Positions 29,757 through 64,000 of a stretch of DNA of 64,000 nucleotides are shown here, in pieces (position 1 is the stretch's first letter; each line of letters begins with the position of its first letter). The DNA is from an uncultured Alistipes sp. (GTDB lineage: Bacteria > Bacteroidota > Bacteroidia > Bacteroidales > UBA932). The position numbers and the translations under genes are program-made. The notes beneath the pieces were generated by a model. It saw only the letters and a program-made list of their open reading frames with translations. It had not been told where the DNA came from and did no database searches. The stretch is from contig CALZHC010000001.1 in the NCBI GenBank assembly GCA_945787505.1, forward strand, positions 4,971 to 68,970, given 5' to 3'.

Positions 29757-29776
29757 TTTTTGTGTTTCTATATTTT

Positions 29777-29980: not shown

Positions 29981-29987
29981 ATACTTC

Positions 29988-29995
29988 TTATGTTT
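29988..29995 (+). promoter_or_regulatory. Candidate -7 box TATGTTTG for lipoprotein paralogue 2
   Basis: Matches TAnnTTTG and ends 25 nt upstream of ATG 30020. Confidence 0.4.
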
Positions 29996-30019
29996 GAAAA
30001 ATTTTGTTAAATTAATTTT

Positions 30020-31372: not shown

Positions 31373-31404
31373 AGTCCTGAACTCTGACAAACCAAGAAAA
31401 ACAG

Positions 31405-31437
31405 GAGGTCTGTAGTCACAGACCTCTCTTTTTTTTT
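31405..31437 (+). terminator. Intrinsic terminator after paralogue 2
   Basis: 9-bp stem GAGGTCTGT / ACAGACCTC with a 4-nt loop, followed by TCTTTTTTTTT. Confidence 0.8.
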
Positions 31438-31455
31438 ATTTATCCGTAAAAAAAG

Positions 31456-31463
31456 TATATTTG
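31456..31463 (+). promoter_or_regulatory. Candidate -7 box TATATTTG for lipoprotein paralogue 3
   Basis: Matches TAnnTTTG and ends 28 nt upstream of ATG 31491. Shares the extended ATTTGCAAT with the paralogue 1 box. Confidence 0.4.
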
Positions 31464-31490
31464 CAATCTTAAAATCAAAAGAATCTATTT

Positions 31491-47155: not shown

Positions 47156-49423
47156 CTAACTTCTCTTGAATACCATTTCAAGTCGGATACCCCCTGAGGG
47201 GCCCATCTTTCCGACTGATACACTACATCCCATCGATTCGACCATTCGGCGGCAGTTGGTAATATCAGGATCACAGTTCTCTATAAAGACGACCACATCC
47301 CCCTCTATCTCAAGCCATCCGACATAAATATCCCCCTTACAGCAATTCAGTCCGTTGGAAATAAGAATATTCACGACCTGAATGAAGACATACCTGTTAA
47401 CGACAATCTGGCTTCCAGAAGGTCCCGGAATCAGCTGTACAGAGACAGGAGTGCTGATGGCAAAGTTCATAAGAACCTCATCCAAAAGTTCCGAAACAAG
47501 ATTTGGCGCAAGAGAGCGTGGATCATCATCCGACTTGCCTTTGGTACTGTCAAAGACCTCATTGAGCAAGCCAAGAAGCTGCGTATTGTTCCTCATGAGA
47601 GACTCCCCGCAATTGACCTTCTCCTGGTCAGAGAGCACATTGAACTTATGAGCTAACAATCTGGAATAGCCTATTATATTCTTGATAGGTTCTATCAGTT
47701 CAGGGGAAACTGAAGCGAGAAAGTTCTCCTTCTCGGAAATCTCTTCACTGCGGGAATAGACCTTGTGAAGTTCTTCATTACGATAGTGGGTCTTTTCATC
47801 GAAATAGAAGAAACCAGCCTTAAGAGCAACACCGTTCTCTTCAGCCGGCAGACATATCATATGGATTCGGACAGCTTTCACAGAATCAGTTCCGGGCAGA
47901 TCAAGCAGAGCCTCCAGGTCAGCACCTCCATCGAAGTTGCCCTTCATAAGCATTGCCTTTAAGGAGCTTCGCCCGGGTTCATGTGTTCTCTCCAAAACAG
48001 TATCCAGCGGAAACGCCTTAATCGGAATATTGAAATCCTTATAAAATGTATCAGAAAATTCTATAGTCCCGTCTTTATATAGTTGCCACAAGTATGAATC
48101 CAACTCAGAAAGAATAGAAGCCACCTGTTGTTCGTACCTCTTTGCTTCCTTTGCCTTGTTCAACAGCCCCTTATGCATTCTTTTCTGCTTGACAAAAACA
48201 ACAGCAGGGAGAATAATGGCATAAATGACAAATAGAATCACGATAAATGGAACGGAGAGACGTATAATCCAATAAAGCGTCTTAGATTTTTTTGACAAAG
48301 GAAGGTTTACAAAGTTGACACCCTCTGGAAATTCGCTCGCATAATTGTGCACCCTTTTGCATATTCTCCAGTCAAGCCAATACTCCTTTTTCAATACCAC
48401 CCATGGAATATTTTTAGGCGCAGTACCCGAGAGTATTTTATCCACAATGGGATGTGTCTGCTCCCACATAGATGGGAAAGGGGTAAAATAGCCCCCCATA
48501 CATGAATTCATCGGATTTAAAAGCGGAAGATTGAAATACTCGGGAGTCATCGCAAAATATGGACCGATATTATAATTCATCGCCATATTTGAATAGACAT
48601 CATTCTTGATATGAAGAAAGGAGGTACTCTGCTGCTGGGTGTAGAAAATCCAGTTAAGTTCAAAACCGCCGGGTTTCTCAGGATGGCGGTCATTCTTCTG
48701 AGGATTCATGATACTTATGGGGAAAAGCGTAATCCTTTTATCTCTCTTGCGGGGAGATGAAATTCTGTCCAGCTGCTCAAGATAGAGATTGGGTCTGTAA
48801 TGAAGAGTATCATTGCCCACCTGAGCGAGAAAACTCCTTCTGATACAATCATCCACGTATGTACTGTCCATCACAGTTAACACATAGCTTGGATAACCTA
48901 AAGCACAGATAAAATCAAGATTTTCCTTTACGGCAGGACGCGACTCCATGACCACCACATTAGGCCGTTTGGCCAGCAGATCGCCATAGTTGGGATCTAC
49001 CACACCGGTGCAGATGGTAGGTGTATTTCTAAGAATCGGTTCATCAAGACGGGCTGCAGAGTGAGATAGATGATCACCATGAATTATCAGCATGTCCGGA
49101 TTGATTTCCATCTCCTTTATCTCCTCGAGTGCATTCAAAATAATCTGCCTCTCATCACGGGCATACTCATTGAGATGAACATAGTTATTAATGTTGGTCA
49201 CCACATAATAGAAATGGAGAGAGTAGCGGGTAGAGTCCTTAAACTCCTTCTTTGCAGATTCGGTGAAACTCTGCCATATCTGAGTCTTGTTGTGATAAGG
49301 GACCAGAAACAAGATATCCTTTTTCTGTCCCTTTGCGGCCATATTTTGGCTAAGAGCCAGAAAAAGAATGATAATAATCAACACTACCCTGTTACCGAAT
49401 TTATTCATCTTGCTCATCATCAT
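47156..49423 (-). CDS. Membrane sensor protein, histidine-kinase paralogue with degenerate catalytic core (pseudokinase)
   Basis: 755 aa with the same architecture as the upstream kinase: signal/TM, a roughly 370-aa extracytoplasmic domain, a TM helix, a PAS-like linker, a DHp-like region and a CA-like region. The H-box reads FLASVSPELIEPIKNIIGYSRLL, so Pro (codon 47704-47702) sits where the paralogue has His. The G1 (ENCDPDI) and G2 (ESMGCSV) boxes are lost. 4-nt start/stop overlap with the upstream kinase gene. Confidence 0.7.
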   Translation of the reverse strand: MMMSKMNKFGNRVVLIIIILFLALSQNMAAKGQKKDILFLVPYHNKTQIWQSFTESAKKEFKDSTRYSLHFYYVVTNINNYVHLNEYARDERQIILNALEEIKEMEINPDMLIIHGDHLSHSAARLDEPILRNTPTICTGVVDPNYGDLLAKRPNVVVMESRPAVKENLDFICALGYPSYVLTVMDSTYVDDCIRRSFLAQVGNDTLHYRPNLYLEQLDRISSPRKRDKRITLFPISIMNPQKNDRHPEKPGGFELNWIFYTQQQSTSFLHIKNDVYSNMAMNYNIGPYFAMTPEYFNLPLLNPMNSCMGGYFTPFPSMWEQTHPIVDKILSGTAPKNIPWVVLKKEYWLDWRICKRVHNYASEFPEGVNFVNLPLSKKSKTLYWIIRLSVPFIVILFVIYAIILPAVVFVKQKRMHKGLLNKAKEAKRYEQQVASILSELDSYLWQLYKDGTIEFSDTFYKDFNIPIKAFPLDTVLERTHEPGRSSLKAMLMKGNFDGGADLEALLDLPGTDSVKAVRIHMICLPAEENGVALKAGFFYFDEKTHYRNEELHKVYSRSEEISEKENFLASVSPELIEPIKNIIGYSRLLAHKFNVLSDQEKVNCGESLMRNNTQLLGLLNEVFDSTKGKSDDDPRSLAPNLVSELLDEVLMNFAISTPVSVQLIPGPSGSQIVVNRYVFIQVVNILISNGLNCCKGDIYVGWLEIEGDVVVFIENCDPDITNCRRMVESMGCSVSVGKMGPSGGIRLEMVFKRS

Positions 49424-51783
49424 TTCCCCAATTTAATCTTGAAAACAGAGCCCTCGCCCTTGAAACTTTCAACAGAGATACTGCCACCAATCAGCTCTAT
49501 AAATGTCTTGCATATAAAAAGTCCCAGTCCACATCCTGTGGTAAAACTATCCACCTTGAAGAACCTTTCATAAATGAGTTTCTGATATTGTGGTTCTATC
49601 CCGGTACCATAGTCCCTTACCCAAATCTCGGCAGCCCAGCCCTTTTCGAAAGACCTGTTCCATCCCACGACAATATCCGAAGAGGATTCCGAGAACTTGA
49701 CTGCATTCGAAATAAGATTCTCTACCACAATAGTCAGCATGCCAGAATCGGTTGTCACCAGCAGATCTGCCGGACCCTCGATCAGCTTTAGCCTTCCCTT
49801 GGAAAAATAACCCACATCCAGCACCGGCTCAGAACAGATAGTTTTCAGTAAATCACCAATATTGACTTTGTTATAAATAGGAACGACTGCCGACTTGCTG
49901 ATTTTCAAAGTGGTGAGGATATTGTCAAGAGTGTGCTGAAGAATTGCTGAATTGGCATCTATAGCCTCAGTATACTCTGCCAATTCATCCTCGTCAATAG
50001 GCATCTGTGGCATAGAAAGCAGCTGCGCATAACCAACTATCGAATTCAATGGAGTTCTAATTTCGTGGTTCATTGAGGCAATAAAGCCCTCGCGAGTCTT
50101 GACAGAGGTCTTAAGGCGGTTAATCTCAGCCTCCTTCGTTTCATATTCTAAAATAGAGTCTATATTTACAATAAAACCGCTCCTCTTTATAGTCCCGTCA
50201 TTTTCATTCTTGCTCACTGTCATCATCAAAGAGTACCAGTGATATGGCTTGCCATCTATAGAACAGTTCAGACGGAGCGAGTGGTTACCGGGTGTGGTAA
50301 TGGAAATGAAGTCCCTGAGCTTCTCAATAAAGAAATTATTGGTTTTCAGACGAGACCAGTCTTCCTTTCCCCAGAAGCCATAATCATCCCACGTATGGAA
50401 GTCTGTAATATCCATAATACGCTTGAGAATAGCGTTCAAGCGGAAAATATCTTCAGAAAACCTCCTGATTTTCAAATTGTCCCTGCGTGACTTTATTACA
50501 TAATAGGTGAGATAGGCAGTACTGGAAATCAGAACAGTTGCAATCAAGACAATCAATATCCACCTATAAACATTGGCCTTATGTGGCTGACGGTCACGGA
50601 AAGTGACATTGTGAAGCTTGACTTCGCACGGAACATTGTTGACATCCAGACCCAAAGGTCTCACCACATCCCAATTAATATTATAGGAGGCCTCATGCAT
50701 GCAAGTTCCTATACTGTCAGGATCCTCACCCTCAAGAATGCGTACCGCAACAGAGACAGCATCCCTGATCTGAGTCTGGGAATCGGGGAAAAACCCTCCG
50801 ATACACTCTTGATTTACAAGAAAATCCTCCGCCACCATGGTATAATAGGGCAGAAGAGTGGAAGAGTTTACTATATTTTCTGACTTTTGGTCATGCTTCG
50901 ACTGAATAAAAAGATTAGGGGATTTCTGAGGATAGAATGCCCATGTAGTAGCTATCTGGCTTGCTTTTTTCGAGATACTCCATTTCGGAGCCATGATGGA
51001 GCGGCAAGAGAAGACCGTCCTTTTTTGAATAGCCGCTATATCTTTCAGATTATACTCATCCACCTTCGGGACAAGGTTATTGTAGAAACGGGCAGTATCC
51101 ATCTCATCTGCCTGGCGGCAAAGCATATTATATTTTATACTGTCACACCACAGATTGGGTACATCCAGCATGGTGATGAACCTGTTATTGGCCAACAGAT
51201 AGTATTCAGGCTTTCGTATATAGTCGATAAGAATCGGAGAGAGGGAGTCTGCAAACATAATATTCTCCTTCAGATGAAGAGGAGAGAGTATATTTACCAC
51301 ATCGTTGAAACGTCCGCCATTGTATTTGTTCTCCAGTAGGTCATACATGTATGGTAGGAACTTATCATCAGAGAGGCCAAAACAGACCACTGGAATGGAG
51401 GATATGACAGAATTTTGGTTGGTGGTAATGAGCCAGCGGTTTACATCCCCGTAAGAGATAATGATATCGGGCATCTTCCCCTGAGAGCGCAACGAGACGA
51501 CCAGGTCATTCATCATAGACCTCTCCAGGCTCTCCCACCTCTCGTGGACATGTGCAAAATGTAGAGTAACATCACCCCTGACACCATGCCTTCGCAACTC
51601 CTGCTTCAGAAAAGAGGTCCATTCGTGGTAGACATGGTCACTTTCGTCAGTAGGCCAATAGACAAGCACATTTGCATCAATGACACTACGTTCCCCCCTT
51701 CCAACGCATGAAACCGCGATGAAAAGAGAAAAGTAAATCAATAGATAAAAGAAATGCCTGTTATATTTAGAAGTCAAGGTCAA
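49420..51783 (-). CDS. Membrane sensor histidine kinase with large extracytoplasmic domain
   Basis: 787 aa. H-box FIASMNHEIRTPLNSIVGYAQLL (His codon 50067-50065), N-box ENLISNAVKFS, G1 VRDYGTGI, F-box ERFFKVD, G2 GCGLGL. No in-frame ATG precedes the signal/TM segment, so the start is apparently TTG (51783-51781). Confidence 0.85.
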   Translation of the reverse strand: MTLTSKYNRHFFYLLIYFSLFIAVSCVGRGERSVIDANVLVYWPTDESDHVYHEWTSFLKQELRRHGVRGDVTLHFAHVHERWESLERSMMNDLVVSLRSQGKMPDIIISYGDVNRWLITTNQNSVISSIPVVCFGLSDDKFLPYMYDLLENKYNGGRFNDVVNILSPLHLKENIMFADSLSPILIDYIRKPEYYLLANNRFITMLDVPNLWCDSIKYNMLCRQADEMDTARFYNNLVPKVDEYNLKDIAAIQKRTVFSCRSIMAPKWSISKKASQIATTWAFYPQKSPNLFIQSKHDQKSENIVNSSTLLPYYTMVAEDFLVNQECIGGFFPDSQTQIRDAVSVAVRILEGEDPDSIGTCMHEASYNINWDVVRPLGLDVNNVPCEVKLHNVTFRDRQPHKANVYRWILIVLIATVLISSTAYLTYYVIKSRRDNLKIRRFSEDIFRLNAILKRIMDITDFHTWDDYGFWGKEDWSRLKTNNFFIEKLRDFISITTPGNHSLRLNCSIDGKPYHWYSLMMTVSKNENDGTIKRSGFIVNIDSILEYETKEAEINRLKTSVKTREGFIASMNHEIRTPLNSIVGYAQLLSMPQMPIDEDELAEYTEAIDANSAILQHTLDNILTTLKISKSAVVPIYNKVNIGDLLKTICSEPVLDVGYFSKGRLKLIEGPADLLVTTDSGMLTIVVENLISNAVKFSESSSDIVVGWNRSFEKGWAAEIWVRDYGTGIEPQYQKLIYERFFKVDSFTTGCGLGLFICKTFIELIGGSISVESFKGEGSVFKIKLGK

Positions 51784-51888
51784 AATAAAGGTAGTTTACA
51801 AAGCAGCGCAAATATACAAAAATGGGCTGCAAATGCCAAAAAAAGGCGTTTCTAAGTCATTTGCTAAACAAACTTTTGATTTTTTTCT

Positions 51889-51896
51889 TAATTTTG
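51889..51896 (+). promoter_or_regulatory. Candidate -7 box TAATTTTG for the receiver/polysaccharide operon
   Basis: Matches TAnnTTTG and ends 29 nt upstream of ATG 51925, in the 141-nt divergent intergenic region shared with the kinase operon. Confidence 0.4.
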
Positions 51897-51924
51897 CACG
51901 ATTAATCCACGTAAACTAATTAAA

Positions 51925-52383
51925 ATGGACATAGGAGCTTTGAAAGATATCGATTGTAGCGATATCTCGGTAGTTATTGTTGATGACATACCCATCAACA
52001 CGAAATTGATAGGGAAGCTACTTGAGCCGGTAGGATTCAAGAAGGTAATACAATACAACAACAGCCAGTTGGCTTTGGACAGCATAAAGACAGACAACCC
52101 CGATATTCTTCTGCTTGATGTAATGATGCCAGGTATAGACGGCTTCTCCTTCCTGTCATCAGTCAGAGAAGAACGAAGCATGGACAATATAAAAATCATA
52201 ATGGTATCGGCTGTGAGCGAACTCGAAGAGGTCAAAAGAGCCTCGGCAATGGGAGCCGATGACTACCTTACCAAACCAATTAACGCCAAACTTTTATACT
52301 CACGCATCGCAAGTCAGGTCTCACAGATCAAGGGGGGGGGAGAAATAACCAATGACACAGAAAAGTACCATATTAATTGCTGA
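51925..52383 (+). CDS. Stand-alone response-regulator receiver protein (CheY-like, no output domain)
   Basis: 152 aa. VVIVDD (acidic pair), PDILLLDVMMPGIDG (phospho-acceptor Asp), IIMVSA (Ser/Thr), DDYLTKP (Lys-Pro). Nothing follows the receiver fold except a short tail encoded across the G9 tract. Confidence 0.85.
   Translation: MDIGALKDIDCSDISVVIVDDIPINTKLIGKLLEPVGFKKVIQYNNSQLALDSIKTDNPDILLLDVMMPGIDGFSFLSSVREERSMDNIKIIMVSAVSELEEVKRASAMGADDYLTKPINAKLLYSRIASQVSQIKGGGEITNDTEKYHINC
52332..52340 (+). repeat. Homopolymeric G9 tract at the junction of the two receiver genes
   Basis: Direct count in ...ATCAAGGGGGGGGGAGAAATAACCAATGAC.... It lies in the last 52 nt of receiver 1 and 12 nt upstream of the ATG of receiver 2. 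Confidence 0.95.
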
Positions 52384-52726
52384 CAAGAAACAATTTCTGG
52401 TAGACGTAATAAAGGAGAGTTTTCATAAGGAGTTCAATTGCGTATGTGTGACGACGGAAGAGGAACTGTTTGAGAAGTTGCCCTACACAGATGCTATAGT
52501 GGTCGGACTTGATGTATGCCTGAGCAACCTGGATAACCGCATCGAAATGATAGCCCGCATCAGGTCCCGCTTCAAAGGCCCCATCGTGGCACTTACAAGC
52601 ATACTCTACTCATCTACCCGTATATCGCTGCTTCAGAAGGGAGCTGATGATGTCCTCACAAAACCGTTCAATCCTGATGAGCTGGTTGTAAGAACAAAAA
52701 AACTAATCACATTATACAGCCGATGA
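52352..52726 (+). CDS. Second stand-alone receiver-like protein with atypical acidic pocket (DD to DK)
   Basis: 124 aa. ILIADKK replaces the canonical DD pair. A candidate acceptor Asp is retained in IVVGLDVCL, with ALTS (Thr) and DDVLTKPFNPDEL (Lys-Pro). No output domain. Overlaps receiver 1 by 32 nt in the +1 frame. Confidence 0.7.
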   Translation: MTQKSTILIADKKQFLVDVIKESFHKEFNCVCVTTEEELFEKLPYTDAIVVGLDVCLSNLDNRIEMIARIRSRFKGPIVALTSILYSSTRISLLQKGADDVLTKPFNPDELVVRTKKLITLYSR

Positions 52727-53433
52727 AGCGCTTTCTGAGTTCATCCATAGCTTTGGTGGCGTTCATTGTTCTCCTGCCCGTAATGCTTGCGGTCTCTGTT
52801 GCAATTTTCATTGAATTGAGACAGATGCCTGTGTACACATCGGTCAGAGTAGGCAAGAACTGGAAAAAATTCAAAATCTACAAGTTCCGCACAATGAAAA
52901 AAGGGGCTGACAGGCTTCTTGCCAATCTCCACTCGATGAATACCTACCTGCGACTGGAAGGCCACACCATAGAAGATAAGGTTACATTCCACAGCAATGA
53001 TTACCTCTATGCTGACAATTACAAAGTCAGAGAAGACGTCTACCTGTCGGAACGGCACAAATGTTTCGAAGGCTGCTTCATCAAGATCGAAAATGACCCC
53101 AGAATCACCAAATTGGGAAAATTCTTGAGAAAGACCAGCCTTGACGAGCTTCCGCAGCTCATCAACATCATCAAGGGAGATATGTGTATAGTAGGCAACC
53201 GTCCCCTCTCCACTGATGAGGCGGAACTGCTCACCACAGATGATGACGGACTCAGATTCAAGGCAAGTGCAGGCCTTACCGGACTGTGGCAGACCGATCC
53301 CCGCAAGGACGACATGCCTCCCTCTGAACGCATAAGACTTGACAATCTATACGCTGAGAAGGAGTCGCTGTCATACGACATTAAACTTATTTTTGCCACT
53401 GTAAAAAAAGTAATTCAAGGAAGTAATGGATAG
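52723..53433 (+). CDS. Small monotopic phosphoglycosyl transferase (bacterial sugar transferase, WbaP/PglC C-terminal type): initiating enzyme
   Basis: 236 aa. N-terminal re-entrant helix, KIYKFRTM, DPRITKLGKFLRKTSLDELPQLINIIKGDMCIVGNRP, GLTGLWQ. An insertion of about 25-30 aa sits between KFRTM and DPRIT. ATGA overlap with receiver 2. Confidence 0.85.
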   Translation: MKRFLSSSIALVAFIVLLPVMLAVSVAIFIELRQMPVYTSVRVGKNWKKFKIYKFRTMKKGADRLLANLHSMNTYLRLEGHTIEDKVTFHSNDYLYADNYKVREDVYLSERHKCFEGCFIKIENDPRITKLGKFLRKTSLDELPQLINIIKGDMCIVGNRPLSTDEAELLTTDDDGLRFKASAGLTGLWQTDPRKDDMPPSERIRLDNLYAEKESLSYDIKLIFATVKKVIQGSNG

Positions 53434-54334
53434 AAAGAGGTTTTTAGTATTGATAGTGGGACTTTTCACCGCTGCTCTTCTAAGTGCTCAAGAAGCACTT
53501 CAGGTAAAGAAGGTCAGGGTGGATAGTACCGTGATGATACTGAACTCAATGACAGTCGAGGACTACATGACACTCGAACTTCCTCCCCTTGATACCCTCT
53601 ACTACAACGCATTCTGCATGTCCAATGCCGTCAAGTACTATGACAACGAGGTAGAGTACTACAGATGTGCCATAACTACTGAACAGCTCAAACCTCTTGA
53701 ATGGATAAGGCTCGTTACATCTGCAAGCTATGGAAACACTAACATGGTAGGAGCTCTGCAGAATGAATCGAGTTACCCCATCTGGATAGGAAGCAGCTCC
53801 AAACAGAAAAGCCTCTACTTCAATGCCGGAGTCACACTGAACATTCCCATCTCTGATGTGTTCAACACCGCCAACAAGGTGCGTCAGGCAAGGGCAAAGC
53901 TCAGTCAGACAGAGGCCAGACGCGATTCGGAACTTGACAACATCAAGAAGGAAATAATCAACCTCTACTGCGAAATCATCTCGGGCATCAATACACTCAA
54001 AAGCGCCTCGGAGAGACTTGTACTTGCACAGGCACAATACGACTTTGCAGAAAAGGATTTTGTAAACAACAAGATAACTGCTGAAGTCCTCTACAGAAGC
54101 AAGAGTTACGAAACTGCCGCAGTTCAGGACTACGAAAGGGTGAAAAAAGAGGTAAATCAGGCATTACTAAGCCTCGAAGTCATATCTTGTACCAAGATTA
54201 TTAAGATCGCCACACCATCTGCTTCCCAACCTCAGGATGAAGAGGAGAGTGTTTCTGAAGATGGAAAGAAGGAGATGAAGGAGAAAGAGAAGAATGAAAA
54301 GAAAGTGAAAAAGGTGAAGAAAGAAGAGGAATAG
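53426..54334 (+). CDS. Secreted protein with one TolC-like (outer-membrane-factor) repeat and a Lys/Glu-rich tail; function unknown
   Basis: 302 aa. Signal peptide (LFTAALLSAQE), a beta-rich segment, then coiled-coil-like ARAKLSQTEARRDSELDNIKKEIINLY...LVLAQAQYDFAEKDF...AAVQDYERVKKEVNQALLSLE reminiscent of OEP/TolC repeats. The tail is KKEMKEKEKNEKKVKKVKKEEE. About half the length of a TolC protomer. Confidence 0.4.
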   Translation: MDRKRFLVLIVGLFTAALLSAQEALQVKKVRVDSTVMILNSMTVEDYMTLELPPLDTLYYNAFCMSNAVKYYDNEVEYYRCAITTEQLKPLEWIRLVTSASYGNTNMVGALQNESSYPIWIGSSSKQKSLYFNAGVTLNIPISDVFNTANKVRQARAKLSQTEARRDSELDNIKKEIINLYCEIISGINTLKSASERLVLAQAQYDFAEKDFVNNKITAEVLYRSKSYETAAVQDYERVKKEVNQALLSLEVISCTKIIKIATPSASQPQDEEESVSEDGKKEMKEKEKNEKKVKKVKKEEE

Positions 54335-54337
54335 AGT

Positions 54338-56479: not shown

Positions 56480-56485
56480 TAGAGA

Positions 56486-57922
56486 ATGTCTCAGAAGTGG
56501 AAAACAGCTCTCTTGTGGATTGTCGCCTCCATTCTGGCATTGGTGACAGGCATTCTCGTATCATCAGGCAACATACCTGTGGCAGCGGTCATCTGTGTGG
56601 CACCCATACTCGCACTTATCATCACCAAAGCTTTTGACAACAGATTCCTCTCACTCTCATTCATCCTTATTGCAGACTTCTCAATTCCGGTTCTCGAACA
56701 CTATATAGTCGGGCAGTCAATGGGTCTGATGATGGATTTCGCGATTGCATTCAACATCGCCATAATAATACTGACACACTTTTATGGAGAGAGGCAGGAG
56801 TGCACCAACAAAATCACGCCTGACTTGCTGGTAGCTGTAGGGGTCTGGCTATTCTACTGTCTTGTCGAAGTGATAAACCCGAATATGAGGAGTATAGGTG
56901 TATGGCTGTCAGCCGTGCGCAGCATGGCCCTCTATTTCTTTATCGTCGTCATAATAACCCAGCTGGCAATCACTAACTTCAAAAGGGTTAAACTCTTTTT
57001 AGGAATATGGTCTGTCTTCGTGCTGATTACATTTATAAAAGTCCTCTATCAGAAGTACATAGGATGGACCCCTGGAGATATCTACTTTCTCAATGTCATG
57101 GACGGCAAGAGAACCCACATCATCTACTACGGGACCAGGTACTTCTCGACCTTCTCGGATGCTGCAAACTACGGAGGCTGCATGGGTATGTCGACTGTAG
57201 TCTTTGCTATTGCCGGAATGCATGGCAGTAATTTAAAGGAGAAAATCTACTATTTCGCAGTGGCAGGATGTGCATGTATCGGCATGTTTTTATCGGGAAC
57301 AAGGAGTGCCCTACCAGTGCCTGTGGCAGGCGTAATGGCATATCTGGTACTAATTAAGGATTTCAAGAAGATGATTCCAATCTCAATAGTATGTGCCGCT
57401 GCCATAGGGATTCTTGCCTTTACCGATATAGGACAGAGCAACACCCAGATAAGGAGGGCACGCACTATCTTCAACAGAACTGAAGACCTCTCATATCAGG
57501 TCAGGAAAGATAATCAGAGAGCTCTCAGGATGCACATGAAAAAGCTGCCTTTCGGGAACGGACTGGGAATGAGCGCAGGCAGGGCACAGCGTAATGGGGA
57601 CTATTCACCCGTAACCAACTACCCCACAGATTCATGGCTCGTACAGCTATGGGTCGAAACCGGAATAATCGGGCTGATTGTTTACATCTGCGTAATGTGC
57701 TTCATATTCGCCAAAGGGGCATACATTGTCTTTTTCAAGTTGAAGAACAAGCACCTTGCCGGAATATGTGCCGGCCTGCTTTCCGGTGTCATGGGTCTTT
57801 TCGTTATGTCCACCAATAACGAAGTCTTCACACAGTTCCCGAACAGCATTCTTGTTTACATGTCACTTTCAATACTATTTATAAGCCCACAAATAGAAGG
57901 GAAAATGGAGGAAAACGAATAA
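56486..57922 (+). CDS. O-antigen ligase/polymerase-family (Wzy-like) integral membrane protein
   Basis: 478 aa with at least 10 predicted TM helices and a large loop carrying Arg/His-rich RRARTIFNRTED...RALRMHMKKLPFGNGLG, typical of the Wzy_C/O-antigen ligase family. Confidence 0.7.
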   Translation: MSQKWKTALLWIVASILALVTGILVSSGNIPVAAVICVAPILALIITKAFDNRFLSLSFILIADFSIPVLEHYIVGQSMGLMMDFAIAFNIAIIILTHFYGERQECTNKITPDLLVAVGVWLFYCLVEVINPNMRSIGVWLSAVRSMALYFFIVVIITQLAITNFKRVKLFLGIWSVFVLITFIKVLYQKYIGWTPGDIYFLNVMDGKRTHIIYYGTRYFSTFSDAANYGGCMGMSTVVFAIAGMHGSNLKEKIYYFAVAGCACIGMFLSGTRSALPVPVAGVMAYLVLIKDFKKMIPISIVCAAAIGILAFTDIGQSNTQIRRARTIFNRTEDLSYQVRKDNQRALRMHMKKLPFGNGLGMSAGRAQRNGDYSPVTNYPTDSWLVQLWVETGIIGLIVYICVMCFIFAKGAYIVFFKLKNKHLAGICAGLLSGVMGLFVMSTNNEVFTQFPNSILVYMSLSILFISPQIEGKMEENE

Positions 57923-57923
57923 C

Positions 57924-58814
57924 ATGGTATCTTTTATTTCTGTAAACTACAATGGTCTGGAGTTGACCAAAAAAATGATAAGTTCCATTATCACCAATGT
58001 TCGATCGTGTGATTTTGAGATAATCGTTGTCGACAACGGCTCTGCCACGAACGAAGCCGAAGTGCTTCAAAAGGAATTTCCGCAGATAATCTCAATCCGA
58101 AGTGAGCAGAATTTAGGATTTGCCGGCGGAAACAATTTGGCTCTGGATAAAGCCAACGGAGACCTGCTCTTTTTCATCAATAACGATACGGAGATCCTCG
58201 AAGACAACATCGACAAGCTGTGCAAGGTGATGGAAAAAGAACCGGCTGTAGGCATTATCTCCCCTAAAATCTGCTTCTATTCAGACAAATCCGTCATTCA
58301 GTATGCCGGTTACACTCCTATGCATGGCTTCAGGATGAAGAACGAGATGACAGGTTATGGAAAGAGGGACGACGGCTCATTCGACAAGCCAGGCCTGACA
58401 GCATTCCCTCACGGTGCTGCAATGATGGTACGCAGAGAGGCTCTTGAAGAGGTAGGACCGATGCCAGAACTCTATTTCCTCTATTACGAAGAGCTCGACT
58501 GGGCAATGATGTTTCTCCACAAGGGGTGGCTCATCTACTTCGAACCCGCCTGTACCATCTACCACAAGGATAGCATGACTACCAAGAGACACGGTCCTGT
58601 CTTCACCTACTACATGACACGCAGCCGTCTGATCTTTGCATCCAGAAACCTCAAGGGAAGTCAAAGAAGAAAGGCAATTCTCTTCACAAGATATATCTCA
58701 TCTTCCAAATCTTGGGTAATCAACATGCTCCACGGACGTTTCAAATCTGCCGGGGCAGTTATCAGAGCTAACGCCGATTTCATCAGAATGAAAAGGAGGG
58801 GTGAAGTGTCATGA
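57924..58814 (+). CDS. Glycosyltransferase family 2 (soluble, rhamnosyltransferase-like)
   Basis: 296 aa. SFISVNYNG...IIVVDNGS...NLGFAGGNN...FINNDTE (DxD-type). Confidence 0.85.
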   Translation: MVSFISVNYNGLELTKKMISSIITNVRSCDFEIIVVDNGSATNEAEVLQKEFPQIISIRSEQNLGFAGGNNLALDKANGDLLFFINNDTEILEDNIDKLCKVMEKEPAVGIISPKICFYSDKSVIQYAGYTPMHGFRMKNEMTGYGKRDDGSFDKPGLTAFPHGAAMMVRREALEEVGPMPELYFLYYEELDWAMMFLHKGWLIYFEPACTIYHKDSMTTKRHGPVFTYYMTRSRLIFASRNLKGSQRRKAILFTRYISSSKSWVINMLHGRFKSAGAVIRANADFIRMKRRGEVS

Positions 58815-59950
58815 TCATAGTCCATATCATACTCATTCTGCTGCTTGTCTTTCCTGCTGCATATTACTTCTTTTTCGCAGTGGCCGCGCTCATGTACCGA
58901 AGCACAAGAGAGTCTTCTACAGAGAAAAGTTCCTTCTGCATAATGATTCCTGCGTACAAGAGCGATGCCTTTATCTTAGATACCGTGAAGGCTGCCATGA
59001 ATCAGGATTATCCTACGGAGAAGTTTCGCATATTGGTAATATCTGACAACATGTCCCTACACACTGACGAGCTGCTCCGTTCTGAAGGGGCGATGGTCCT
59101 TAAAGTCAGTTTTACCAACAGCACCAAGGCAGCATCACTTTGCGCCGCTGCGAAATATCTCGGTCCTCAAGCAGTCGATTATACAGTCATACTGGACTCT
59201 GACAATATTGTAAGCCCCACCTTTCTGAGCGATATGAACGATATGCTCCGCGGCAGGAATACCGTAGTTCAGGGACACAGGTGCGCCAAAAACATCGACA
59301 CGCCCATTGCTGTGGCAGACGCCATATTCGAAGAGGTGAACAACAAAATCTTCAGGGCCGGACATTGTTCCGTAGGGCTCTCATCAGCTCTCATTGGTTC
59401 AGGAACCGCCATACCCTATGCGTGGTTTTATGAAAATGTCTCCAGACTGGCCACCTGTGGCGAAGACAAGGAGATGGAGCTGATGCTCCTGAAGGATGGT
59501 CTGTTCGTCGAATATGCCGATCACATAGATATCCTCGACGAGAAGACCCGTTGCATAGAGAACCTGCGCCGACAGAGACTGCGCTGGATGACATCCCAAT
59601 ACTACCTGATAGGCAAGGCTCTTAGAGAGCTTCCCGATGCAAAGTTCAAAATCGGTTATGCGGACAAGCTCATCCAATGGACATTTCCTCCGAGGATTTT
59701 GCTTCTTACCATGCTGCCGTTGATTGCAATTATCTATGCAGTGGCAGGCTCCCCTCTTATGTCTCTCTTTATCGGGGGAACAGTAATTCTCTATACTGCG
59801 ATTTTGCTCGAATTACCTAAATGGGTAACACTAAAACATATAGCATCTATAACCACCTATGTGCCCCGAATGCTCTGCGCCACCCTTAGGAACATCTTCG
59901 GCAAGAAAGGGAATAAGGACACTTTCATTCATACAGACCATCAACAATGA
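58811..59950 (+). CDS. Membrane-embedded GT2 with the processive-synthase signature Q(R/Q)xRW (PgaC/IcaA/cellulose-synthase-like)
   Basis: 379 aa. An N-terminal TM helix, a GT-A core (IMIPAYKSD, ILDSDN as DxD, CGEDKE as a TED-like base motif, RRQRLRWMTSQ as QxxRW), then 2-3 C-terminal TM helices. ATGA overlap with the upstream gene. Confidence 0.7.
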   Translation: MIIVHIILILLLVFPAAYYFFFAVAALMYRSTRESSTEKSSFCIMIPAYKSDAFILDTVKAAMNQDYPTEKFRILVISDNMSLHTDELLRSEGAMVLKVSFTNSTKAASLCAAAKYLGPQAVDYTVILDSDNIVSPTFLSDMNDMLRGRNTVVQGHRCAKNIDTPIAVADAIFEEVNNKIFRAGHCSVGLSSALIGSGTAIPYAWFYENVSRLATCGEDKEMELMLLKDGLFVEYADHIDILDEKTRCIENLRRQRLRWMTSQYYLIGKALRELPDAKFKIGYADKLIQWTFPPRILLLTMLPLIAIIYAVAGSPLMSLFIGGTVILYTAILLELPKWVTLKHIASITTYVPRMLCATLRNIFGKKGNKDTFIHTDHQQ

Positions 59951-61047
59951 GAATAGCAATAGAAGCACAGCGCATTTTCAGACGCAGCAAACACGGAATG
60001 GATTTCGTGGCTCTGGAGATAATACGCTCTCTCCAGAGAATTGACAAGACTAACGAGTATTGGATATTTGTGGCTCCCGGGGAGGATGTCTGCCTTAGCG
60101 AAAGTGAAAATTTTCATATCGAGGTACTTGGAAGCGGGTTCTATCCCCTTTGGGAACAGATTCTCCTTCCTGCAGCTGTAAAGAGGGTGAAGGCAGATCT
60201 GTTGCACTGTACCAGCAACACAGCCCCGCTCTTTGCAGGCGTTCCTCTGGTCCTGACACTCCATGATGTGATTTGTTTGGAAAAACAGAAAAACGGTTCC
60301 AGCAAATCACTCTATCAGAGGATGGGACGCATCTACAGTCGTTTTGTCATTCCAAAGATTGTCAATAAATGCAAGAAGATAATCACTGTCTCACAATACG
60401 AAAAGGGGATTATTGACTCAAGATTGAAACTTCCTCAAGAGAGAGTCACCGTAGTATACAACGGTTTTGGCAAGGAGTTCAACCTGAGTGCTGCCTCCCC
60501 TGAGAGGAACTACCTGCTGTTTCTGGGTGCTACAGCCCCTAAGAAAAATACCGCAGGGACACTTCTGGCATACTCGCTCTATCTGGAGAGGTCTTCGAGA
60601 AAACTTCCTCTCAAGGTAGCAGACCTGAGCCGCGAAAATATGCTTGAATACCTCAACGAAATCGGTAAACCGGAGATTGCAGACAAAATCGAGTGTACGG
60701 GATATGTGCCCCACTCAGCGCTTCCAGCCCTCTACGGTGGTGCATCTATATTCTTATACACCTCTTTCAGAGAGAGCTTTGGCATTCCACAACTCGAAGC
60801 GATGGGCTGTATGACCCCGGTCATCGTTTCTGACAAGTCGGCTCTTCCTGAAATCGCAGGACCCGGTGCCGTTTACGCAGACCCTTACAAGCCTGAAACC
60901 ATCGCCTCCGCAATGCTCAGGCTGGAGAATGACAACGACTACAGAGATGCAGCTGTCAAGTACGGGGAAGAAAGAATAAAGATGTTCTCTTGGGAAAAAG
61001 CTGCAAATGAAGTACTCTCCATATATGAATCACTGAAAAACAATTAA
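59947..61047 (+). CDS. Glycosyltransferase family 4 (GT-B, group 1)
   Basis: 366 aa. The C-terminal ESFGIPQLEAMGCMTPVIVSDKSALPEI carries the E-x7-E motif of GT4 enzymes. ATGA overlap with the upstream gene. Confidence 0.85.
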   Translation: MRIAIEAQRIFRRSKHGMDFVALEIIRSLQRIDKTNEYWIFVAPGEDVCLSESENFHIEVLGSGFYPLWEQILLPAAVKRVKADLLHCTSNTAPLFAGVPLVLTLHDVICLEKQKNGSSKSLYQRMGRIYSRFVIPKIVNKCKKIITVSQYEKGIIDSRLKLPQERVTVVYNGFGKEFNLSAASPERNYLLFLGATAPKKNTAGTLLAYSLYLERSSRKLPLKVADLSRENMLEYLNEIGKPEIADKIECTGYVPHSALPALYGGASIFLYTSFRESFGIPQLEAMGCMTPVIVSDKSALPEIAGPGAVYADPYKPETIASAMLRLENDNDYRDAAVKYGEERIKMFSWEKAANEVLSIYESLKNN

Positions 61048-61049
61048 TT

Positions 61050-61667
61050 ATGGCAGATCTTAAAAACCTCAAGTATACACACCCACGTCTGAAGAAGTTC
61101 ATTGTCTTTACACTCTCTTCCATGAAACACCCCAGACCGCGTCTTTGGACCAGACTCTTTGTAAATCCTCTTGTCCATAAAAGGGGCAGAGGCTCCAAGG
61201 TGTGCTGCAAGGCAAGGCTGGATCTCTTTCCATGGAGAAAGTTTGTACTTGGCAAATGGGCTATTATCGAGGACTTTGCAGTAGTTAACAACGGTGCAGG
61301 TGACCTTATTATCGGAGAAAAATCGCGCATTGGTATCGGCAGTGTAGTGGTAGGACCTGTGGAAATAGGCAGGAGTACCTCGCTGGGACCTCATGTCCAC
61401 ATTACCGGTTTCAACCACACATTCGAAGATGGAGAGAGAGACTGGAACGAACAGGGACTTACATTGAGACCTGTAAAGATCGGAGACGAGTGCCTCATCG
61501 GTGCCAACTCGTGTGTCTGTGCAGGTGTGACAATTGGCAACAGAGTTCAGGTGGGTGCAGGAAGTGTCGTGACCAAGGACCTGCCGGATGCATGTGTGGC
61601 AGTGGGCAACCCTGCAAGGGTAATAAAGCTATACAACCCCGAAACCAAAAAATGGGAACGCGTATGA
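61050..61667 (+). CDS. Left-handed beta-helix (hexapeptide-repeat) O-acetyltransferase
   Basis: 205 aa. Hexapeptide repeats IGEKSRIGIGSVVVGPVEIG...IGDECLIGANSCVCAGVTIGNRVQVGAGSVV, and a C-terminal GNPARVIK typical of WcaF/Maa-like acetyltransferases. Confidence 0.85.
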   Translation: MADLKNLKYTHPRLKKFIVFTLSSMKHPRPRLWTRLFVNPLVHKRGRGSKVCCKARLDLFPWRKFVLGKWAIIEDFAVVNNGAGDLIIGEKSRIGIGSVVVGPVEIGRSTSLGPHVHITGFNHTFEDGERDWNEQGLTLRPVKIGDECLIGANSCVCAGVTIGNRVQVGAGSVVTKDLPDACVAVGNPARVIKLYNPETKKWERV

Positions 61668-62770
61668 AACTTCTATTTCTGGTTTTCCATAGCCTTGTTG
61701 CTCACAGCGGTATCTCTAAAAAGATCTATGCTCAGTGCTCAGCTCTAAAAGAGAACGGAGTGGATGTATCGCTATGCACTCTCGAAATTGCCCCTGACGG
61801 CACCAAATACAGAACCGTAGATTCCATCCCAATCTGCAGTTTCGGCAGCGGCTTGAAGGCCAAACTGCGCAAGAGAATCGACTACTCGGATATCGTAAAG
61901 CATGCAGTTGAAGGCAGATATGATGCAGTTTACATACGTTACGACTTCAACTCAGACCCCTTTACTATCAGAATGATGGATAGTCTGAAGAGAAACGGGA
62001 TAAAGAGTGTCGTAGAGATTCCGACATATCCGTACGATGCCGAGTTCAAGGGACAAGGAGTGATGATGAACACTACCCTGCTGGTAGACAAGATCTTCAG
62101 AAAGAGATTCTTCAGCTTATGTGACCACATCGTACTCTACAGCGGTCCTGACAAGCTTTACGGCAGGCCGGTTATCCACATCAGCAACGGTATAGATTTC
62201 AGCTGCGTGCCCCTCTCCTGCCCTCAAACAGATTTTACAGGCAAGCTCAGGATGGTCTCAGTAGCCAATATCCATAACTGGCACGGACTCGACAGGCTTA
62301 TCAAGGGCATGGCGCTGCATAGCGATGTACCCTGCGAACTTCATATCATAGGGGACGGAATACCACAAATCATTGACAGCTACCGTGAAATGGCAAGAGA
62401 ATACGGAATAGGCGACCGTGTGAAGATTCTCGGGCCTATGTATGGTGAATCACTCGACAAGGAGTTCGAATGGGCAAATATCGCAGTAGGAAGTCTGGCA
62501 CGCCACCGCAGCGGCATCACATCTATCAAGACACTCAAGAACCGCGAATACGCTGCACGCGGACTTTCGTTCTTCTACTCCGAGCAGGACGACGATTTCG
62601 ACAGTGCACCATACGTTTTCAAGGTACCTGCTGACGAATCTGCAATAGATGTTGGTAAAGTGGCGGAATTTCTCTCCGGAATGAATCTTCCGGGCAGCAG
62701 CATCAGAGAATCCATTATGCACCTGAGCTGGAACGCCCAGATGGCAAAAGTGATTGAACAGACCTCTTGA
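61664..62770 (+). CDS. Glycosyltransferase (GT-B fold, GT4-like), last gene of the plus-strand operon
   Basis: 368 aa from ATG 61664 (MKLLFLVFHSL), which forms an ATGA overlap with the acetyltransferase stop. The track's longer ORF from 61490 is only an upstream extension inside the acetyltransferase gene. The GT-B call rests on layout (N-terminal MKLLFLV..., central HIIGDG...) and is weaker than for the other GTs. Confidence 0.6.
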   Translation: MKLLFLVFHSLVAHSGISKKIYAQCSALKENGVDVSLCTLEIAPDGTKYRTVDSIPICSFGSGLKAKLRKRIDYSDIVKHAVEGRYDAVYIRYDFNSDPFTIRMMDSLKRNGIKSVVEIPTYPYDAEFKGQGVMMNTTLLVDKIFRKRFFSLCDHIVLYSGPDKLYGRPVIHISNGIDFSCVPLSCPQTDFTGKLRMVSVANIHNWHGLDRLIKGMALHSDVPCELHIIGDGIPQIIDSYREMAREYGIGDRVKILGPMYGESLDKEFEWANIAVGSLARHRSGITSIKTLKNREYAARGLSFFYSEQDDDFDSAPYVFKVPADESAIDVGKVAEFLSGMNLPGSSIRESIMHLSWNAQMAKVIEQTS

Positions 62771-63671
62771 ATAGCATCGAAACAAAAGGTCTTAGCTTGA
62801 GAGCATACGGGTATCGCGCTACAATCCTTCGCGCAGCCCTGATTCTGGACGCCAAAGGGAGGTTCCAGGAGTTGTACATGACAGAATGTACAAACGCCTT
62901 AGAAAGTTCTCTGACCAGTTTCTCTCTTTGTCCTGTAGTAGAGAGAGGCTCTATTAGCTCAAGTGTCTTCAGATAACCCTCCAGATTTCTTTCGGAAAAA
63001 GAGAGAGTCATTACTGAATTTTCCCTTACCCTTCTGCGGTAGAACTCTTCCGGTATCCCGGAAACTCTAGTTGCATTGGCATATGCTATTGCCGAAAAAA
63101 ATTCATCCTCATGAAGTATTCCAACGGGGAAGTTTATCCCGTTCTCTCTCAAAAAATCGCGACGGAAAAGCGACATGCAAACAGAGCAGCGGTATATTCC
63201 CCTTCCAAGCATATCCAGAGCGACACTGCAGCCGTCACTCACATCTTCATAAAGTGCAGCCCTATGATAATCGAACCATGTGTGGGAGGAAGCGACTTCC
63301 ACACCGTCCCCGAACGATAGTGCATCGAAAAATACAAAATCCAGACTGTCCCTTCTACACCTGTCGACACACTTCTTCAAGGTATCCCTCTCAATCAGAT
63401 CGTCACTGTCCATAAAATAGACAAACTCACCGTTGGCAATCCTAAGGGCATCATTACGTGCCGCTCCCTGTCCTTCATTCTTCTTGGAGATGAGCCTTAT
63501 CTTATTTCCGAACCCTTTGAGAACCTGCAGACTGCCATCTGTCGAGCCGTCATCCACCACGATAACCTCCACACTATCGAGACTTTGGTCCAGAACACTG
63601 TTAATTGCATCCGCCACATACTTTTCAGTATTGTAGACAGGTATTATTACAGAGACATCATACTTAAACAT
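62715..63671 (-). CDS. Glycosyltransferase family 2
   Basis: 318 aa. VSVIIPVYNTEKY...VEVIVVDDGSTDGS...YFMDSDD (DxD). Convergent with the plus-strand operon, overlapping its last gene by 56 nt. Confidence 0.88.
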   Translation of the reverse strand: MFKYDVSVIIPVYNTEKYVADAINSVLDQSLDSVEVIVVDDGSTDGSLQVLKGFGNKIRLISKKNEGQGAARNDALRIANGEFVYFMDSDDLIERDTLKKCVDRCRRDSLDFVFFDALSFGDGVEVASSHTWFDYHRAALYEDVSDGCSVALDMLGRGIYRCSVCMSLFRRDFLRENGINFPVGILHEDEFFSAIAYANATRVSGIPEEFYRRRVRENSVMTLSFSERNLEGYLKTLELIEPLSTTGQREKLVRELSKAFVHSVMYNSWNLPLASRIRAARRIVARYPYALKLRPFVSMLFKRSVQSLLPSGRSSSGA

Positions 63672-63678
63672 CGTGCTC

Positions 63679-64000
63679 TTATATATTTTTAATTACAAAT
63701 GACGAAACCACCATCTTGTGGTCACTGATTTCATCATCAACGATATGGCTGCTAATACACTCAAGATCATCGTTATAAAAAATATAGTCTATCCGGAACA
63801 GATCATACAGGTAGCGGTATGTGGAGCCATTTCCCTTACCCTTGCTGAGGAAACTATCTTTCAGCGAGGCGGATAACATCTTCCTGTACGGGAAACTGCC
63901 TGGAACGCTATTGAAGTCACCCATAACGAGCAACGGAGTCCTTACATAGCCTATCTTTTCTGATAGCGATACCGCCTGGTTCCTCCTGATTTCACTATTT
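63679..64000 (-). CDS. Endonuclease/exonuclease/phosphatase (EEP)-family protein, C-terminal part (5' end outside the window)
   Basis: The reading frame stays open upstream of the track's TTG start all the way to base 64000 (my translation: ...NSEIRRNQAVSLSEKIGYVRTPLLVMGDFNSVP...). GDFN and the C-terminal SDH are EEP-family motifs. Confidence 0.7.
   Translation of the reverse strand, partial: NSEIRRNQAVSLSEKIGYVRTPLLVMGDFNSVPGSFPYRKMLSASLKDSFLSKGKGNGSTYRYLYDLFRIDYIFYNDDLECISSHIVDDEISDHKMVVSSFVIKNI

Follow-up and report, generated by a model that had tools for sequence, protein, structure and literature searches.

A Bacteroidales locus in which stand-alone receivers beside a kinase/pseudokinase pair may gate the initiation of exopolysaccharide synthesis

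We analysed a window of 64,000 nt (contig CALZHC010000001.1, positions 4,971-68,970) whose region from 47.1 to 64.0 kb encodes a sensor histidine kinase (HK), an inert paralogue of it (pseudo-HK), two stand-alone receivers (RR1 and RR2) and, in the same operon as the receivers, the machinery of a surface polysaccharide. The reading that we favour, with slightly better than even confidence, is that the sensor pair acts on RR1 and that phosphorylated RR1 (RR1~P), by way of RR2 and the initiating phosphoglycosyl transferase (PGT), gates the initiation of a Wzy-type exopolysaccharide (EPS) at the enzyme level. The active kinase and its dead, translationally coupled paralogue would form a membrane heteromer that senses a periplasmic signal, which may be a glycan or something released when a glycan is broken down, through two paralogous domains of ~340 aa. 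The kinase would phosphorylate the canonical RR1, and RR2, a dedicated PGT-associated receiver or pseudo-receiver, would relay the signal to the small monotopic PGT. RR2 may be made in stoichiometry with the PGT because of the ATGA coupling of their genes, and would bind it through a conserved alpha4-beta5-alpha5 face. The first transfer of sugar phosphate to undecaprenyl phosphate would thereby be turned on or off, and the OEP-like, Wzc-like, Wzy and glycosyltransferase (GT) proteins would then build and export the polymer.

The features of the locus are the following (aa, amino acids; TM, transmembrane).
47156-49423, minus strand: pseudo-HK, 755 aa, a full-length paralogue of HK
49420-51783, minus strand: sensor HK, 787 aa, TTG start (HisKA 47.7 bits, HATPase_c 64 bits)
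51784-51924: divergent intergenic region of 141 nt between the HK start and RR1, with two Bacteroidetes-type -7 boxes
51925-52383, plus strand: RR1, stand-alone receiver, 152 aa (Response_reg 92 bits)
52352-52726, plus strand: RR2, divergent stand-alone receiver, 124 aa (Response_reg 44 bits)
52723-53433, plus strand: small monotopic PGT, 236 aa (Bac_transf 174 bits)
53426-54334, plus strand: short OEP/TolC-like secreted protein, 302 aa (OEP 49 bits)
54338-56479, plus strand: GumC/Wzc-like co-polymerase, 713 aa (sub-threshold Wzz, pepcterm_ChnLen 55 bits, AlphaFold2 model and Foldseek)
56486-57922, plus strand: Wzy-like polymerase, 478 aa, at least 10 TM segments (Wzy_C 44.7 bits, hydropathy)
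57924-58814, plus strand: GT2 (Pfam, NCBIfam)
58811-59950, plus strand: membrane GT2, synthase-like, 3 TM segments (Glyco_tranf_2_3, hydropathy)
59947-61047, plus strand: GT4 (Pfam, NCBIfam)
61050-61667, plus strand: hexapeptide acetyltransferase (Pfam, NCBIfam)
61664-62770, plus strand: weak GT1-like protein (Pfam, NCBIfam)
62715-63671, minus strand: convergent GT2 (Pfam)
to 64000, minus strand: Exo_endo_phos gene cut by the window end (Pfam), the convergent end of the cluster running over 62715-64000

All coordinates, starts, stops and junctions of the original prediction were reproduced by our map of open reading frames (ORFs), and its domain calls were borne out, with minor corrections, by Pfam profile hidden Markov models. 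The tight operon that had been described is real, all its junctions being overlaps or 6 nt or less (in order -32, ATGA, -8, +3, +6, +1, ATGA, ATGA, +2 and ATGA), and the HK and pseudo-HK genes likewise overlap by an ATGA. The Pfam scan also agreed that the locus has no transcription factor, UpxY/NusG, Wza (Poly_export) or Wzx: no protein with a helix-turn-helix, NusG/UpxY, Poly_export or Polysacc_synt domain is encoded in 47.1-64.0 kb.

The closest relatives of the locus are found in uncultured 'Candidatus Cryptobacteroides'/Bacteroidales metagenome-assembled genomes (MAGs), and a reciprocal search anchored on the GumC/Wzc-like protein gave 323 homologues; dereplication at 70% identity of this protein left nine lineages. 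The cassette OEP-like/GumC-like/Wzy/GT2/GT2/GT4 recurs at 37-99% identity in Cryptobacteroides, in a Bacteroidaceae MAG (L023), in rumen Bacteroidales (L028-L032), in L025 and in Alistipes of the human gut (L024, with some 70 contigs from metagenomes), and judging from these comparisons the conservation of gene order over nine lineages down to 37% identity is far beyond chance. A stand-alone, output-less receiver is encoded in the cassette or just upstream of it in 9/9 lineages. The linkage of sensors, receivers and polysaccharide genes is thus conserved, and we encountered none of the findings that the original prediction had named as speaking against it. Directly upstream of the PGT gene, an RR2-type ORF was found in all seven PGT-bearing lineages (the copy in L025 being an 86-aa remnant), and both lineages that lack the PGT, L023 and L029, also lack RR2 and keep RR1.

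Wherever the available sequence reaches far enough, a kinase gene stands at most 10 kb upstream, L025 being the one exception, and these kinases are unrelated between lineages. Cryptobacteroides has the HK/pseudo-HK pair; Alistipes has a 655-aa HK co-operonic with an RR1-like gene; L023 has, at 2448-5233 on the minus strand and facing the cassette, an 805-aa protein with two HisKA-HATPase_c (DHp-CA) modules and then a gene for a stand-alone histidine phosphotransfer (Hpt) protein; and L029 has a hybrid HK and two further HKs near the cassette. Because the kinases are unrelated while the receivers are constant, the receivers belong to the cassette and the sensors are interchangeable. L025 (region 8301-9169) stands apart from the other lineages in several respects: its PGT is without an internal insertion of ~45 aa described below, its RR2 is the remnant, a kinase gene is missing from the adjoining 10 kb, and a NusG-like gene is nearby. 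The coincidence of the missing insertion with the RR2 remnant is a single case and is only suggestive.

Each receiver has Response_reg as its sole Pfam family, in agreement with the earlier description of both as output-less. A cryptic output domain was ruled out by the domain scans and by the length of 118-152 aa in all lineages, which leaves no room for one in RR1 or RR2. The phosphorylation pocket of RR1 (DD, phospho-Asp, Ser and Lys) is complete in 33/33 unique family members. In addition, RR1 travels with the kinase, accompanying paralogous HK/pseudo-HK pairs even where polysaccharide genes are missing, and there it forms a transcription unit of its own; from these associations RR1 is likely the cognate partner of the kinase.

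RR2 behaves differently from RR1. In the window it has D-K in place of the acidic D-D pair, keeps the phospho-Asp, has a 2-aa deletion in the beta3-alpha3 loop and carries the conserved GADDVLTKPFNPDEL. The acidic pair varies among the other Cryptobacteroides (ES, EN, ED), which keep the phospho-Asp with K, S, N or D as the second acidic ligand across the genus, and it is DD in Alistipes, where the whole pocket is canonical. In four rumen lineages the phospho-Asp itself is replaced, by Asn in L028, L031 and L032 and by Glu in L030, and the RR2 gene is retained beside the PGT even there. The description of RR2 as a DK variant is thus right for the window and not for the family, since the degeneracy runs from none in Alistipes to loss of the phospho-Asp in the rumen lineages. 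Residue 12 of RR2 is Lys, at the position equivalent to Asp13 of CheY, and this was found only in the present species and its 95%-identity relative; the D13K substitution renders CheY active without phosphorylation. Invariant columns are concentrated in beta4-alpha4-beta5-alpha5 (11/47, GADDVxTKPFNPxEL) compared with the N-terminal part that holds the phosphorylation pocket (4/77). The nearest relatives of RR2 in a library of 1.8 billion proteins are stand-alone receivers of 117-124 aa, and no family of DNA-binding regulators stands out among its relatives there. Judged by its genomic company, RR2 is likely the partner of the PGT. The proposal that each signalling tier consists of a canonical and a degenerate paralogue therefore stands for the kinases and falls for the receivers, as RR1 and RR2 are distinct families with different partners, not close paralogues.

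The PGT has a single hydrophobic segment at residues 12-30 (one re-entrant helix), a Bac_transf match over the whole protein, the motifs DELPQL (containing the DE dyad) and KFRTM, and an extra internal insertion of ~45 aa with the conserved pattern LY.D.Y.V.E. Of the 445 positions of the EPS_sugtrans model it covers 257-443 alone, and it lacks the N-terminal TM bundle and the cytoplasmic DUF that stand before the catalytic domain in the large monotopic type (WbaP/EpsZ); on these motifs it is classed as a small monotopic PGT (monoPGT) of the PglC type. Among the 120 closest homologues, 64 are 340-420 aa long and have a receiver-like N-terminal extension of ~140 aa; 13 of the 64 were already annotated as Response_reg plus Bac_transf, and a Pfam rerun on three of the extended proteins gave a receiver domain at 35-44 bits. 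When the extension family was aligned with the RR2 profile, HHalign gave a probability of 98.8% (E 1.3e-16), compared with 98.2% for the RR1 family. The key receiver residues are mostly degenerate in the fused domains. The Alistipes PGT (392 aa) carries such a fused pseudo-receiver (E 1.5e-15) besides the separate RR2. These fusions (P0207-P0212, P0287 and others) belong to the same PGT clade as the window protein (44-50% identity), have the same internal insertion and have a receiver-like domain attached, whereas the receiver in the window is a separate, translationally coupled gene; they therefore support a physical partnership of receiver and PGT. PMC12802240 cites O'Toole, Imperiali & Allen (2021) for receiver domains fused to small monoPGTs, and a paper on a Prevotella intermedia PGT notes extra loops in PGTs and no receiver linkage. 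The adjacency and joint absence of RR2 and PGT, together with the fusions among the closest PGT relatives, lend strong indirect support to the post-translational control by direct contact that the original prediction had suggested, and it is from these associations that we infer the contact itself.

To our knowledge, the only demonstrated action of a receiver on an initiating transferase is the one reported for Myxococcus in 2025. Schwabe et al. (mBio 2025; PMC12802240) showed that the phosphorylated single-domain receiver EpsW (EpsW~P) binds the large monoPGT EpsZ and activates it post-translationally in EPS synthesis of M. xanthus, and predicted that the mechanism extends to other bacteria beyond myxobacteria. 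The remark in the original prediction that it knew of no described system with this architecture is superseded by that work. As in the Dif pathway of M. xanthus, a receiver-only regulator encoded with a Wzx/Wzy-type EPS locus is proposed here to act at the initiating PGT. Nevertheless, the two systems differ. EpsZ is a large monoPGT that is proposed to be dimerised by EpsW~P, whereas the present enzyme is a 236-aa small monoPGT; the kinase in Myxococcus, which belongs to a different phylum, is the CheA-like DifE, whereas here it is a membrane HK/pseudo-HK pair; and Myxococcus has a single receiver where the present system has two distinct ones, RR2 decaying to a pseudo-receiver in some lineages. 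RR1 scored 67.3 bits against the EpsW family NF041866, whose cut-off is 200, and RR2 is not among the best matches listed for that model; RR1 is therefore an analogue of EpsW, not an orthologue.

For the comparison of the kinase with its partner, 18 sequences of the former and 20 of the latter were taken, each from a different species-level locus. HK and its 17 orthologues and paralogues all have intact H, N, G1, F and G2 boxes (18/18), with the phospho-acceptor His in the H-box (SMNHEIRTP in the window) kept throughout. HK shares the type of its ~340-aa periplasmic domain with the pseudo-HK, and the two are full-length paralogues (21% identity, E 7e-24). No Pfam family matched the 755-aa pseudo-HK, which is built of a signal/anchor helix, the ~340-aa periplasmic alpha/beta domain, a TM segment, a PAS-like domain, a DHp domain without the His (SVSPELIEP) and a reduced CA domain without G1, F and G2. 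In 16/16 partners of the Cryptobacteroides clade the His is replaced (by P, A, D, E, N, T or S) and the G1-F-G2 region with the ATP lid is deleted, whereas in outgroup pairs (31% identity) both members keep the His and the ATP-binding boxes. In the tree the HK and partner families are each monophyletic with respect to the other, as expected from a single tandem duplication. The product of 47156-49423 is thus a true, evolutionarily maintained pseudo-histidine kinase, restricted to one Bacteroidales clade, and the kinase/pseudokinase pair of the original prediction is real, with intact boxes in the one and His and ATP lid lost in the other.

In the AlphaFold model of the pseudo-HK (pLDDT 80), an anchor helix and a periplasmic domain of alternating alpha/beta structure (~35-375) are followed by a TM/stalk helix, after which come a PAS-like domain, the helices of DHp and a CA domain that is reduced. 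Its fold matches PAS-DHp-CA kinases, DivL among them, in a Foldseek ranking dominated by the cytoplasmic part, and its sequence profile matches HK853, RetS and DivL. Invariant columns number 76 in the periplasmic domain and 37 in the cytoplasmic part, and this roughly twofold conservation points to a role as co-sensor. The periplasmic domain had no Pfam match in any of 45 members scanned singly and no sequence match in the PDB. A grouping of the EPS-linked sensor pairs as monophyletic was also considered and was dropped, as the star-like neighbour-joining tree gives no resolution on this point.

Among known systems, DivL/DivK/CckA of Caulobacter and RetS/GacS come nearest to an inert kinase homologue that works with an active one. 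The pseudokinase DivL controls the active kinase CckA by reading the phosphorylated single-domain receiver DivK~P (PMC4211667), and RetS of Pseudomonas modulates GacS and thereby the production of exopolysaccharide. Unlike DivL and RetS, the present protein is encoded in tandem with its paralogue, to which it is translationally coupled, has the same periplasmic domain as that partner and has lost both His and ATP lid, and its homology to them is limited to the generic kinase fold.

To see where the sensor pair stands in other genomes, we used a scan with one genome per species (16 loci) and, adding those fetched in the other searches, took all distinct loci that contain the pair (17 species-level loci). 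The pair adjoins the polysaccharide operon in six of the 17, and an RR1 orthologue is next to the pair in nine, including those six. The first three homologous pairs had different contexts: the full operon in L005, a receiver followed by mreBCD-PBP2-rodA in L001, and neither in L003. They suggested that the linkage of sensor and polysaccharide genes is not conserved, a view overturned by the GumC-anchored reciprocal searches, and RR1 at the head of an mreBCD-PBP2-rodA operon was rejected as a general pattern because it was seen in L001 alone. The MAG GCA_029099025.1 has, besides the pair in L003 without the operon, a second pair (L022) divergent from RR1-RR2-PGT, and the MAG CALZOR likewise holds both kinds of pair (L011 and L014). 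Since linked and unlinked pairs occur in the same genomes, the unlinked ones are paralogues. Such genomes hold two or more pairs, of which a single one adjoins the polysaccharide operon. In L008 and L010, three genes (a paralogous pair and a monocistronic RR1) make up a module complete in itself.

No neighbours of the pair are better conserved than orthologous SusC (59-71% identity) and SusD (71-84%) genes, which lie within 10 kb in 12/17 loci (L001, L003, L007, L008, L012, L013, L015-L019 and L021). These are often accompanied by an alpha-L-fucosidase gene, also beside the outgroup pairs with two intact kinases, and a 13th locus, L010, has the fucosidase without SusC/SusD. Three loci have the polysaccharide operon as well as the SusC/SusD/fucosidase set beside the pair, and in the window a BNR/sialidase-like gene (45913-47100) occupies the side where that set stands elsewhere. 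This neighbourhood suggests that the input may be a periplasmic glycan. A third family of single-domain receivers, canonical and 124-131 aa long, is encoded between the pair and SusC in several loci (L001 14243-14617, L007 12223-12600, L008 10888-11283, L019 15614-16003 and L021 11015-11392) and is absent from the window. The view of the pair as part of a dedicated EPS system was not upheld, as paralogous pairs exist elsewhere in the same genomes and other lineages use unrelated kinases.

A Bacteroidetes-type -7 box (TAnnTTTG) is located at 51889-51896 on the plus strand, 28 nt before the RR1 ATG, and another at 51816-51809 on the minus strand, 25 nt before the HK start. The scan for this motif gave 47 matches against 34.9±6.3 expected, many of them 25-35 nt upstream of ORF starts, and none on the plus strand from 54.8 to 64 kb. 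The box before RR1, the lack of boxes over that range and the tight or overlapping junctions fit co-transcription of the receivers with the biosynthetic genes, so that control would not be by separate promoters. Scans for sigma-70 promoters and terminators, which are uninformative for Bacteroidetes, did no better than shuffled sequences. An invertible promoter was rejected: the best inverted repeat, 23 nt long, matches at 78%, and one of its arms falls within the HK gene. The locus resembles Bacteroides capsule loci in being a Bacteroidales surface-polysaccharide gene cluster, and differs from them in having no UpxY/NusG-like gene, no convincing invertible repeats and no Wzx or Wza, its regulators being receivers only.

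Several points weigh against gating of the PGT through RR1 and RR2. The evidence for contact and phosphotransfer is indirect: we infer from the sequences the phosphotransfer from HK to RR1, the binding of RR2 to the PGT, the sign of the regulation and the ligand, and the route from RR1~P to RR2 and the PGT might be a receiver-receiver contact or, where the Asp is kept, phosphorylation of RR2. Small monoPGTs are reported to act as monomers (PMC12802240), so that the dimer mechanism of EpsW/EpsZ is not simply transferable and promotion of a dimer is unlikely here. The linkage of the sensor pair to the polysaccharide operon is less faithful than that to SusC/SusD/fucosidase genes, and paralogous pairs exist away from that operon. 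RR1 is kept in L023 and L029 where RR2 and PGT are missing and must therefore have at least one further target, and the stand-alone Hpt in L023 and the hybrid kinase in L029 hint at relays that possibly end elsewhere. Finally, a possible internal -7 box, at 53388, stands 30 nt before the OEP-like gene.

A more specific version of enzyme-level gating, which we put forward tentatively and as well short of even, is a Bacteroidales-specific two-receiver relay that would couple glycan foraging to EPS initiation without transcription. RR2 and the PGT would be a split receiver-PGT fusion that RR1~P reaches by contact with RR2, and in Alistipes RR1~P would instead contact the PGT's own fused pseudo-receiver. 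The sensor would be the kinase/pseudokinase heteromer, whose unannotated periplasmic domain would read the glycans of the adjacent SusC/SusD/fucosidase (or sialidase-like) genes.

We regard as unlikely the alternative of a multi-step phosphorelay in which the receivers serve as intermediates or as sinks for phosphate, with an unlinked DNA-binding regulator as output and the cassette, perhaps with the glycan-uptake genes, under transcriptional control. Polysaccharide-utilisation genes are normally controlled transcriptionally, and in Flavobacterium an unorthodox kinase and a single-domain receiver drive a biofilm-linked transcriptional programme. The Hpt gene beside the kinase in L023, the hybrid HK in L029 and the third receiver family, encoded in several loci between SusC and the sensors, would also fit such a relay. 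However, the window contains neither an Hpt nor a hybrid kinase, and the pseudo-HK lacks the His that a Spo0B-like phosphotransferase would need. For a relay intermediate it is hard to explain why RR2 should be ATGA-coupled ahead of the PGT, be absent where the PGT is absent, occur fused to PGTs and survive as a pseudo-receiver.

Still less probable to us is that RR2 is a constitutive, signal-independent subunit of the PGT and that HK/pseudo-HK-RR1 is a glycan-sensing unit with other targets, adjacent by ancestry, in which case synthesis would not be kinase-gated. Loss of the phospho-Asp in four lineages and of a Mg2+ ligand in most Cryptobacteroides, the Lys at the CheY D13 position, the mostly degenerate fused receivers, the HK/pseudo-HK-RR1 modules without polysaccharide genes and the frequent position of the pair beside SusC/SusD are all consistent with it. 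Against this, RR1-type receivers and a kinase accompany the cassette even under entirely different kinases (Alistipes, L023 and L029), which argues that the signalling input belongs to the cassette. Furthermore, the Alistipes RR2 is fully canonical, and RR1 and RR2 overlap or are contiguous in one operon.

That RR1~P acts back on the sensor in the manner of DivK and DivL, the pseudo-HK receiving the phosphorylated receiver and tuning the kinase so that the receivers are signalling logic and not effectors, seems similarly improbable: the DivL precedent (PMC4211667), the DHp-like helix and CA-like fold kept by the pseudo-HK, its match to DivL among other kinases in both model and profile, and the three-gene module speak for it, whereas the variable DHp alpha1 and the roughly twofold more conserved periplasmic domain favour a co-sensor and the coupling of RR2 to the PGT is left unexplained. 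Such feedback is compatible with gating of the PGT and does not exclude it.

Enzyme-level regulation of Wzx/Wzy-type polysaccharide pathways is poorly understood. Gating of the PGT by the receivers would mean that the receiver-on-PGT principle is present also in gut Bacteroidales, with a small PGT, two receivers with divided roles and interchangeable kinases, and the natural fused and pseudo-receiver versions would chart the evolution of the system. This mode of controlling surface polysaccharide would be distinct from the classical scheme of invertible promoters and UpxY in Bacteroidales, and sensing of nutrient glycans may be linked to production of matrix, as the glycan-uptake genes beside the sensor pair suggest. 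Because human-gut Alistipes has the same cassette, the hypothesis is testable in culturable organisms.

The assembly proteins are in part unusual. The designation of the 713-aa protein as Wzc-like is supported by structure prediction and not by sequence, where it gave a sub-threshold Wzz match and no kinase match. Its TM segments (17-35 and 468-486) flank a periplasmic coiled coil, the topology of a polysaccharide co-polymerase (PCP), and with its AlphaFold2 model (pLDDT 80.6) Foldseek matched full-length Wzc (E 6e-15) and, in the C-terminal domain, the kinase domains of CapAB, Etk, Wzc and BceF (E 1e-5 to 1e-4). An assignment as bacterial tyrosine (BY) kinase at the sequence level failed, the structure prediction alone giving the match. 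In 61 homologues the Walker A motif G(E/D)GK(S/T) is kept, Walker B reads (I/V)VEYPP, and no C-terminal Tyr cluster was found, with 0-2 Tyr in the last 25 residues. According to the model it is a PCP-2a-like protein with a BY-kinase-like P-loop domain and no Tyr cluster. It shares with Wzc/CapAB systems the PCP-2a-like architecture with a cytoplasmic P-loop domain, and differs from them in the missing Tyr cluster, in EYPP instead of DTPP, in the lack of a sequence-level kinase match and in having no Wza/outer-membrane polysaccharide export partner, a short OEP-like protein standing in that place.

The name TolC-like for the latter is only partly justified. It has an OEP match at 119-251, yet with 302 aa it comprises about one OEP repeat, with a weak match to the second half of TolC, instead of the two tandem repeats (about 420-480 aa) of TolC/OEP proteins, and its orthologues (260-302 aa) are about half the size of TolC. 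No sequence in the PDB matched it. Its gene is directly upstream of the GumC-like gene in all lineages, and the protein may serve in export as an outer-membrane partner of an unusual kind. A C-terminal tail rich in Lys and Glu is present in the window copy, and the copies of 260-280 aa elsewhere appear to have no room for it.

The five-gene order GT2/GT2/GT4/acetyltransferase/GT1-like is common to Cryptobacteroides, the Bacteroidaceae MAG and Alistipes. A trio of GT2, Exo_endo_phos and GT2_3 genes follows the operon in L022 and L023, and this conservation of the convergent GT2 and the cut Exo_endo_phos gene indicates that the cluster extends past the window end. Downstream of the trio, L022 has a further PAS-containing kinase. 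Wzx is encoded in L023 and L024, unlike in the window locus. Other lineages have in the cassette a large DUF4842/DUF4114/Big_2 protein, encoded between RR1 and RR2 or the OEP-like gene (L023 6737-9205, L028 796-3438, L029 6735-9209, L030 950-3379 and L024 17181-18431), which is absent from the window locus.

The rest of the window consists of ordinary chromosomal housekeeping genes. An ORF of 975 aa (22146-25073, minus strand) has no Pfam match at E <= 1e-5. At 28422-32816 on the plus strand there are three tandem paralogues of 444, 450 and 441 aa, in each of which an N-terminal fn3 domain is the sole Pfam match.

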